Sequence record: KT184316.1
DNA from: Enterobacteria phage XTG1
Length of the DNA: 64,000 bases
Direction: 5' to 3' (one strand)
The notes beneath the pieces are model-generated. The model was not told the DNA's origin. It made no database searches and saw nothing but the letters and a program-made list of their open reading frames with translations. This document shows positions 44,170 through 44,410 of this stretch, piece by piece; within the stretch, counting starts at the first letter, position 1, and each line of letters opens with the position of its first letter. Position numbers and translations under genes: made by a program.

Positions 44170-44410
44170 TTTTCATTTCAGGATTGTGCAGGTAGAGTTC
44201 TGTAGAGAAATCTGTAGAGAGAATTTTGAACTCCAAAGAGAAAATTCATTTTCAAACTGTGCAGGTAATCTCCAAAGAGCTTTTTCATTTTCAAAACGTG
44301 CAGACCCCGCTCAGGTCGGGCAAGAAAAATCATTTTAGAATTGTGCAGGTAGGTTTTTATAGACAGCCAGCCCAACCCCTCTCCCCTCTTACTCCCCCTC
44401 TCCCCAAAAG
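44170..44410. repeat. Intergenic direct repeats (TTCATTTCA…TGTGCAGGTA, 4 copies) followed by a 39-bp C-rich tract
   Basis: Copies near 44171, 44246, 44283, 44330; tract cccaacccctctcccctcttactccccctctcccc at 44368-44406; no credible coding frame. Confidence 0.6.

Follow-up and report, generated by a model that had tools for sequence, protein, structure and literature searches.

The replication origin of phage lambda contains four 19-bp iterons, and iteron origins are also found in plasmids, including pPS10, F, and RK2. The ToxI array, a repeat array of another kind, comprises 5.5 copies of a unit of about 36 nucleotides (nt). In phage T5, the injection stop signal, or ‘Repeat Region 3’ of the first-step-transfer DNA, occupies 1.2 kb inside a 10-kb terminal repeat; inverted repeats, palindromes, and paired DnaA boxes dominate it, and it has been tied to the A1 and A2 proteins and to a demonstrated two-step transfer (Davison, bioRxiv 10.1101/866236; NC_005859 annotation). 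We describe here an array of four direct repeats, followed by a C-rich tract, in a stretch of 64,000 nt of Enterobacteria phage XTG1 (KT184316.1), which is referred to below, at its full length, as the window and which belongs to a Felix O1-type myovirus genome (Ounavirinae; Felixounavirus). Repeats and tract sit within a 520-bp non-coding interval, with a macro-domain gene on the left and early gene cassettes on the right. The repeats are best explained as docking sites for a sequence-specific DNA-binding protein, presumably encoded by the phage, and the array might represent an iteron-like assembly site, for which a replication origin, or one of the phage's origins, is the most likely though still tentative assignment. 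The retrieved passages of the Felix O1 genome paper list several perfect direct repeats and describe the temporal regulation of transcription as not understood, and the array is not mentioned in them. Full-text searches of the literature on the repeats, termini, origin, and transcriptomes (RNA sequencing) of Felixounavirus or phiEa21-4 returned no description of it, and we accordingly regard it as a conserved cis element that has so far gone undescribed. Its general kind is familiar, its spacing is unusual, and its structure-prone tract is optional.

The four repeats share the motif TCATTT-N7-GTGCA, are all on the plus strand, and start at 44173, 44246, 44285, and 44330, with start-to-start spacings of 73, 39, and 45 nt. 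A sequence-only reading of this DNA had proposed four units of ~25 bp at irregular spacing, and this description is borne out. The full unit measures ~26-38 nt and consists of an upstream run of four to five A or four to five T residues, the 18-nt core and, in most cases, a downstream GGTA; the leader CTCCAAAGAG precedes R2 and R3. The repeats and the elements that follow them are as follows:

44168..44195, plus strand: repeat R1, core TCATTTCAGGATTGTGCA at 44173-44190 (91.9% conserved)
44231..44268, plus strand: repeat R2 with its CTCCAAAGAG leader, core TCATTTTCAAACTGTGCA at 44246-44263 (95.5% conserved)
44270..44304, plus strand: repeat R3 with its CTCCAAAGAG leader, core TCATTTTCAAAACGTGCA at 44285-44302 (95.5% conserved)
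44324..44353, plus strand: repeat R4, core TCATTTTAGAATTGTGCA at 44330-44347 (95.2% conserved)
44348..44406, no strand assigned: variable segment from R4 to the AT-rich block, 59 nt, found in two unrelated forms
44376..44405, plus strand: C-rich tract CCCCTCTCCCCTCTTACTCCCCCTCTCCCC, in which 21 of the 30 nt are C
44406..44455, no strand assigned: AT-rich block AAAAGTCAATAGAAAAATTTGTAGCGGATTGAAAAATAATTCTTGATTTG (93.4% conserved)

When the 64 kb were scanned with a degenerate 18-mer at up to three mismatches, 16 matches were obtained against 5.25 expected. The four copies at the locus had zero to two mismatches, and just two further sites in the 64 kb fell within two mismatches, both without GTGCA. 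The complete genome of phage KhF2 (88,309 bp, ~97% identical to the window) served as the whole-genome comparator; a scan of it with the 22-nt consensus returned these four sites and one more at the limit of four mismatches. The four-repeat array far exceeds chance; it is real, confined to a single locus in the genome, and non-coding. No second array of this kind marks the other strand-switch boundary, at ~61 kb. The greater length of the spacer between R1 and R2 is due to a small tandem duplication, AGAGTTCTGTAG / AGAAATCTGTAG (44194-44221), with a conservation of ~90% in Felixounaviruses.

The segment 43300-45100 matches 247 phage records, the best being those of Enterobacteria phages KhF3 (99.2%) and KhF2 (98.7%), and the array was found in every Ounavirinae genome examined, in three to five copies. 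In Felix O1, it lies between ORF13 and ORF15 at positions 7989-8163 of the record, with spacings of 73/39/45 and a C tract at 8193-8222. Mooglevirus phages of Citrobacter and Shigella have four copies (spacing 75/41/45) plus the C tract, and the Kolesnikvirus phages of Erwinia have four copies of TTTTTCATTTTCAATTTGTGCATAG at spacings of 37/37/39, followed by a shorter C-rich patch. The repeat segment is the only part of the interval that BLAST aligns to Kolesnikvirus, and within the subfamily the motif occurs in the variants GTGCAGGTA and GTGCATAG. Five units are present downstream of the macro-domain gene in a metagenomic contig of 88 kb (L032) that has no close isolate relative and shares the gene order of the window at ~45-60% amino-acid identity. 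In this contig, the repeats are followed (reverse-complement ~5600-5790) by about nine copies of TTAACA in ~170 nt, which resemble the Felixounavirus terminal repeat; if this stretch is the terminal repeat of L032, its array is subterminal. A scan of IMG/VR with the exact two-unit pattern identified 43 stretches. Of these, 31 are located on Ounavirinae-type contigs of 84-90 kb, with three to four copies in the same arrangement, and the remaining 12 are unrelated (11 Ser/Ala-type coding repeats and one different, two-copy non-coding repeat). Downstream of the macro-domain gene of Pakpunavirus JG004, no equivalent array was found, and two distant macro-gene homologues (L125 and L126) belong to unrelated phages and were uninformative.

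The conservation of the interval was quantified, as identity to the window, in a set of 22 distinct Felixounavirus and Mooglevirus sequences picked by homology of the macro protein only, which avoids circularity. Identity amounts to 92-95.5% in the repeat cores and 93.4% in the block 44406-44455, compared with 89.8% in the adjacent coding sequence, that is, the last 30 nt of the macro gene. The spacer between R3 and R4 has 71% identity, and the segment that follows R4, including the C tract, ~56%. Judged from these alignments, selection acts on the repeats, and the constraint on them exceeds that on the neighboring codons. The universality of the array in the subfamily argues for a core function rather than an accessory role in anti-defence. 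In the Felixounaviruses of the BPS17L1/Si3 type, the macro allele is only 41% identical and the terminator is different, and three repeats are retained; the first repeat of BPS17L1 (L129 1501-2500) likewise overlaps the T-run of its different terminator hairpin. The array thus stands at a mosaic junction, since in BPS17L1 both the macro allele and the terminator have changed and the array downstream of them has been kept.

The C-rich tract has a different history. That it is conspicuous in an AT-rich genome, as the sequence-only reading had it, agrees with the counts, since the next-richest 30-mer of the 64 kb contains 15 C and the window as a whole is 18.7% C. The same reading had called it a 39-bp polypyrimidine tract; the 39 nt at 44366-44404 are indeed C-rich (25 C, 8 T, 4 A, 2 G), but with six purines they are not strictly polypyrimidine. 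The mirror repeat CCCCTCTCCCC is present twice within the tract. Its minus strand reads GGGG-AGA-GGGGG-AGTAAGA-GGGG-AGA-GGGG, a canonical four-run G-quadruplex motif (loops of 1-7 nt), and the tract is the sole match to the pattern (G3+N1-7)x3G3+, or to an i-motif pattern, on both strands of the 64 kb. In the plus-strand RNA, it forms part of a 78-nt patch with 29 C and 8 G, the highest value of the plus-strand gene block. Patches with an excess of C over G recur in Mooglevirus (24/8), Kolesnikvirus (28/12), and L032 (25/5).

This tract occupies one of two forms of the variable segment. Among the 24 distinct Felixounavirus and Mooglevirus sequences that could be assigned, 13 have the C-tract type and 11 the alternative type, an unrelated 60-nt segment (GGTGGGTGCAGGTAGGGATGTCGCCATTTCTCACAAGGCTACCACATCC...) that is G-rich on the plus strand, then mixed. 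Beyond a shared stretch of 7 nt at their start, the two forms agree at 16 of 52 positions, as random sequences would (window 44348-44406 compared with L011, L012, L024, and L044). The C-over-G patch is absent from the alternative allele, and so is the G-quadruplex motif, which is also weaker in Kolesnikvirus. Since about half of the distinct Felixounavirus sequences replace the C tract with an unrelated segment, it is dispensable, and it is a lineage-variable accessory rather than the core of the element. The sequence-only reading had proposed conservation in relatives as a check on repeats and tract together: the repeats were recovered from every Ounavirinae genome examined, but the tract is missing from 11 of the 24 sequences. 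On the other hand, both forms measure 59-60 nt in Felixounavirus (54-56 nt in Mooglevirus), and it seems from these equal lengths that the distance between the array and the AT-rich block is constrained and the intervening sequence is not. In a variant of the VpaE1 type (L046), the distance between R4 and the AT-rich block is exactly 10 nt shorter, which, together with the equal lengths, suggests a constraint on spacing or on helical phase.

A single locus, universality in the subfamily, constraint on the motif, the non-coding and unstructured nature of the interval, variable spacers, and a fixed distance to the AT-rich block are together best explained by the binding of a protein to the DNA. 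We infer this binding, the identity of the process (replication), and each of the steps that follow from the arrangement of the sequence. In this scheme, the array would be organized by the protein bound to it, and strand opening would take place in the AT-rich block, whose distance of ~60 bp is fixed. Opening or priming would be aided by transcription from the strong promoter or promoters nearby, to the benefit of a replisome of the T7 type; the phage does have a T7-like replisome, with a primase-helicase and a PolA-type polymerase. Where it is present, the C tract could form a G-quadruplex, an i-motif, or a triplex, or could stabilize an R-loop, and on plus-strand read-through RNA it could serve as a loading site for Rho.

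Replication is placed first among the possible processes for three reasons. The origin is the sole core cis function without an assigned site in these phages; direct repeats, an AT-rich block, and adjacent strong promoters make up a classical architecture; and packaging has a repeat-rich region of its own at the terminal repeat. In addition, an array at a single locus, both in the window and in KhF2, is what is expected of an origin-type element and not of a general promoter or operator. Like the iteron origins of lambda and of plasmids, the array has three to five direct repeats of ~20-25 bp in the same orientation, at one locus and strongly conserved; A/T tracts and a conserved AT-rich block flank it, with active promoters alongside. 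It differs from them in its irregular spacing of 37-75 bp, in having neither an adjoining initiator gene nor DnaA boxes, and in that its AT-rich block is not the least stable DNA of the window; there is also no similarity in sequence.

Several of these differences weigh against an origin. No initiator adjoins the array, whose neighbors are the macro-domain gene and small early genes that belong to PHROG families of unknown function; the annotations of KhF2 and of the first 50 kb of Bas63, where its replication genes are located, list none either, and we know of no initiator gene in these phages, although an unrecognized one may be encoded elsewhere. The spacings of 73/39/45, or 37/37/39 in Kolesnikvirus, contrast with the regular ~22 bp of classical iterons. 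A search for DnaA boxes (TTWTNCACA, at most one mismatch) found none in the repeats, and 190 in the window against 211 expected. The AT-rich block ranks only among the top 5-7% of windows of 100-150 bp for instability. Both the least stable duplex and the minimum of the cumulative GC skew are found elsewhere, at 14.8-14.95 kb, beside the DNA polymerase gene. Finally, the plus strand shows a lower GC skew on the right-hand side of the array than on the left-hand side, the opposite of the effect of a bidirectional origin. A rival candidate for a replication origin, or for a pair of divergent promoters, is the divergent intergenic region at 14731-14957, which separates the minus-strand DNA polymerase gene from the rightward gene that comes next and includes CTTAAAAG-type repeats as well as an inverted repeat of 27 nt. 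As for the DnaA boxes, the Kolesnikvirus repeats read TGTGCATAG, which by eye matches the complement of the box at 8 of 9 positions; as a conserved property of the array such boxes were rejected, being absent from the repeats of the window and without enrichment there.

The genes and signals on either side of the array lead to a second reading, that of a boundary between transcription units. The flanking features are as follows:

43314..44099, plus strand: macro-domain gene, the upstream flank (Pfam PF01661 Macro, E 1e-7)
44129..44170, plus strand: intrinsic terminator of the macro-domain gene (terminator scan; annotated in ASO1A and KhF2)
44527..44555, plus strand: first early promoter, TTGACT-17-TAATAT (promoter scan; annotated in ASO1A)
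44558..44618, plus strand: 5′ leader of the first cassette, 61 nt, with the hairpin GGGGAGGGAATGACCTTCCCC and a ribosome-binding site (self-BLAST)
44619..44807, plus strand: first early gene, coding for a 62-aa protein (open reading frame list)

The placement of the repeats between a macro-domain gene and the first early promoter, as originally proposed, is confirmed by the Pfam match and the promoter scan. The macro-domain gene, which is named phosphatase, Tk.4-like, or macro domain in annotations, closes a long rightward block of middle genes (~16-44 kb). Its terminator has a 17-bp stem (-23.6 kcal/mol, z -4.9), and the U-tail at 44169-44173 doubles as the T-run that opens R1. To the right, the first early promoter is a near-consensus sigma-70 promoter preceded by an AT-rich stretch (44501-44526). 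The leader (44558-44620, ~60 nt) recurs ahead of at least 10 early genes downstream, with copies at ~45069, 45894, 46491, 47170, 48035, 48360, 48695, 49591, 50156, 50752, and 51084. All 10 open reading frames of the early cassettes that were scanned belong to PHROG families of unknown function. This repetition of leader and cassette recalls the promoter/stem-loop cassettes in the hyperplastic regions of T4-type phages.

It is conceivable, though we consider it doubtful, that the array is a transcription boundary or regulatory site at this junction between the middle genes and the terminal block of early genes. A phage or host protein bound to it would keep read-through transcription out of the early cassettes and the terminal repeat, the C-rich patch would act as a Rho loading site that backs up the intrinsic terminator, and the array might control a divergent pair of promoters on its right, consisting of the early promoter and a possible leftward one. 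The constant position of the array is in line with this, since it always abuts an intrinsic terminator with which it has the T-run in common, despite the differences in the upstream allele and hairpin, and the first of the more than 10 early promoters follows it at a distance of 180-350 bp. A C-over-G patch, moreover, stands out in four of five lineages on an otherwise G-rich plus-strand RNA that is predicted to be less structured than shuffled sequence. The patch resembles Rho utilization sites in being ~80 nt long, C-rich, G-poor, and unstructured (fold z +0.25), with no conserved open reading frame. However, the terminator is already strong, the alternative allele lacks the patch, the sites are distant from every promoter core, and the more than 10 separate early promoters, none of which has the motif, are beyond the control of one array.

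The evidence for a leftward promoter depends on the lineage. The minus strand of the AT-rich block provides an AT-rich upstream stretch and the -35 hexamer TTGACT (44414 to 44409). In Kolesnikvirus, the candidate TTGACG-18-TATACT is strong and well conserved, its hexamers being retained while the spacer has diverged, which speaks for a boundary. The candidate of the alternative allele is TTGACT-17-TAGCCT, with TG upstream, but that of the window's allele, TTGACT-17-TAAGAG, is without the critical final T (the -7 T), which speaks against one. Leftward transcription over the array appears plausible for the family and is weakly supported in the window. The Kolesnikvirus promoter, a sigma-70 one, is placed back-to-back with the first early promoter (L006 ~1690-1810, L008 ~1655-1780) and would transcribe the G-rich patch and the repeats in antisense. 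The four-run G-quadruplex motif on the minus strand brings to mind R-loop or quadruplex elements such as CSB II of mitochondria and RNA II of ColE1, and as in mitochondria the replisome of the phage combines a primase-helicase with a PolA-type polymerase. In contrast to CSB II and ColE1 RNA II, the tract is replaced in about half of the distinct Felixounavirus sequences, and the leftward promoter that would produce the G-rich RNA is weak in the C-tract allele.

It is unlikely that the array works as RNA, that is, as a non-coding RNA built from repeated units that would act as a sponge for a protein or imitate a type III antitoxin. Units of 37-45 nt, transcribed for instance leftward, would then titrate a host RNA-binding protein or the endoribonuclease of an abortive-infection system. 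The period and the three to five copies do resemble ToxI-type arrays, as ToxI and the pseudo-ToxI mimics of phages are non-coding tandem direct repeats with a period of 36-45 nt and 2-5.5 copies, and both Kolesnikvirus and the alternative allele offer a plausible promoter for leftward transcription. The promoter-repeats-terminator-toxin layout of ToxI is nevertheless missing: the terminator is upstream of the repeats, not after them, and downstream there are a promoter and the gene for the 62-aa protein of unknown function, and no toxin gene. Nor is there a stable predicted structure on either strand, or an Rfam match to any antitoxin family in the library. Just ahead of the core, some units have an A-run and the others a T-run, a variation that fits DNA more easily than RNA. 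Strict universality in the subfamily and a fixed position, rather than a patchy distribution, would be unusual for anti-defence cargo. A host counterpart was also sought: searches of 5,426 complete genomes of E. coli and of 72,556 plasmids found no similar array, and there was no Enterobacterales match in a collection with one genome for each of 185,579 species. A copy or mimic of a host array, whether a type III antitoxin or a CRISPR repeat, was rejected as far as tested, without host matches.

A comparison with T5 suggests a further function, in DNA entry, which we regard as equally unlikely. The array, perhaps with the C tract, would be a T5-like injection stop at which entry pauses after the terminal ~8 kb, and the early cassettes would be expressed before the remaining genome enters. 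The array is indeed 7.5-8.3 kb from the terminal repeat (~9% of the genome), at the inner edge of the early-cassette block, and the T5 signal similarly marks the inner edge of a terminal early block transcribed by the host polymerase, ~8-10 kb from the genome end. The T5 signal, too, is untranslated, conserved in its family and more strongly so than the adjacent open reading frames, with direct repeats of 23-25 nt at irregular spacings of 23-81 bp, among them four copies of a motif that contains TGTGCA. On the other hand, there are no reports of two-step DNA transfer in Felix O1-type phages. The array measures ~240 bp against 1.2 kb in T5 and lies outside the terminal repeat, not inside it. 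Only weak, scattered inverted repeats were found in it, with no paired DnaA boxes, long inverted repeats, or palindromes. If the TTAACA stretch of L032 is a terminal repeat, there would be no early genes between the array and the end in that genome. Sequence homology with T5 is limited to one hexamer, for which a rough estimate gives a chance of about 0.1, and the TGTGCA common to the two repeats is probably a coincidence. In the injection-stop region of T5 itself (L128 3246-3475, record ~9745-9975), at least six copies of (A/G)TGTGC(A/G)AATCCGAC are found, the first of which begins at the annotated major single-strand interruption. More specifically, the array could combine with the structure-prone tract into a checkpoint for DNA entry, by which Felix O1-type myoviruses would perform a two-step transfer through an unrelated cis element; this proposal seems to us quite unlikely.

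Still harder to sustain is the idea that the array is a conserved linker for modular recombination, without a biochemical function, that offers homology to co-infecting relatives. Its surroundings are certainly mosaic: genomes of the BPS17L1/Si3 type have exchanged all of the sequence to the left of R3, two alleles exist for the segment that follows R4, and the first cassettes after the promoter differ. However, the motif is kept in Kolesnikvirus and in L032 (the latter at ~50% protein identity), both of them far too divergent for homologous recombination, the copy number is steady at three to five, and the distance from the array to the AT-rich block is constrained.

A genome terminus or packaging signal, with terminase recognition sites or a virion DNA end at the array, is extremely unlikely, for although the C tract is the starting point of one record (that of phage Andreotti) and two metagenome contigs break off within it, with a third doing so ~30 nt past it, these ends look technical and the mapped terminal repeat lies in a separate repeat-rich non-coding region, at 51861-52425. 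Bal31 digestion and run-off sequencing have established a direct terminal repeat of 608 bp in the Felix O1-like phage UAB_Phi87 (PMC4837284). Window positions 51861-52425, 7.5 kb to the right of the array, match this repeat with 85% identity, and the homologue there measures ~565-608 bp. The surrounding region (51500-52900) is non-coding over more than 1.3 kb; rightward and leftward genes converge on it, and it contains the motifs TGTTAAG/TTGTTAG, CTTAAAAG, and CTATAAAG.

The sequence ends at the tract can be described further. The record of Escherichia phage Andreotti (MN850610, 83,391 bp; L003, L005) has a snap-back inverted duplication at either end; one of these begins at the C-tract edge, the other lies near 50.2 kb of the window, and the region of 44.4-50.2 kb is apparently missing. 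The loss of these early cassettes points to a misassembly or to a rearranged variant. The IMG/VR contigs 3300045988_009833 (L025/L100) and 3300045988_003641 (L013/L099) stop at the identical base, ...CTCTTACTCC, in the C tract. One of the two runs on into CTGTCTCTTATACACATCT..., which we take to be Nextera adapter sequence. The shared stop base suggests a tagmentation hotspot or a collapse of coverage. Another contig ends ~30 nt beyond the tract, in the conserved block. We read the breaks at the C tract as a technical consequence of an awkward sequence, not as a physical end. In IMG/VR contig 3300045988_004180 (L036/L105), the sequence switches abruptly after R3, in the R3-R4 spacer, to GC-rich DNA of bacterial appearance, the result either of chimeric assembly or of an insertion at a point precisely within the array.

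Three further explanations were considered and set aside. The interval had been said to hold no credible coding frame, and this is upheld: frames are open on both strands because the repeats have no stop codons, but from one genus to another they are shifted or interrupted. A known or structured RNA was rejected as well, as the best Rfam hit has an E value of 2.6 (unrelated families) and the fold z-scores are +0.25 and +1.18; the plus-strand RNA of the interval, to which the first value belongs, is predicted to be less structured than shuffled sequence. A structured small RNA thus finds no support. A general promoter or operator motif was dismissed since no other genomic copy exists and since the fits to -35 and -10 elements within the units, made by hand, are poor. 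An informal comparison by eye with consensus sequences of host transcription-factor sites and related signals, for IHF, Fur, Fis, marbox, PhoB, sigma-54, sigma-E, ops, and boxA revealed nothing convincing.

The typing of Salmonella, biocontrol, and therapy all make heavy use of Felix O1-type phages, one of which, Bas63, is becoming a model for engineering. The array, a single non-coding copy that the subfamily has kept throughout, ranks as a strong candidate essential cis element, and engineers should take care not to delete it inadvertently. The C tract is of practical interest in its own right, as it apparently breaks assemblies and represents the sole quadruplex-type motif in the 64-kb window of an AT-rich genome. 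If the array were, in spite of its low probability, an injection stop, two-step DNA transfer would extend beyond the T5-like siphoviruses, of which it has so far been a peculiarity. Four 18-nt cores and one 50-nt block make a small target, and work on them could locate the replication origin of these phages or reveal a new mechanism of regulation or of DNA entry.

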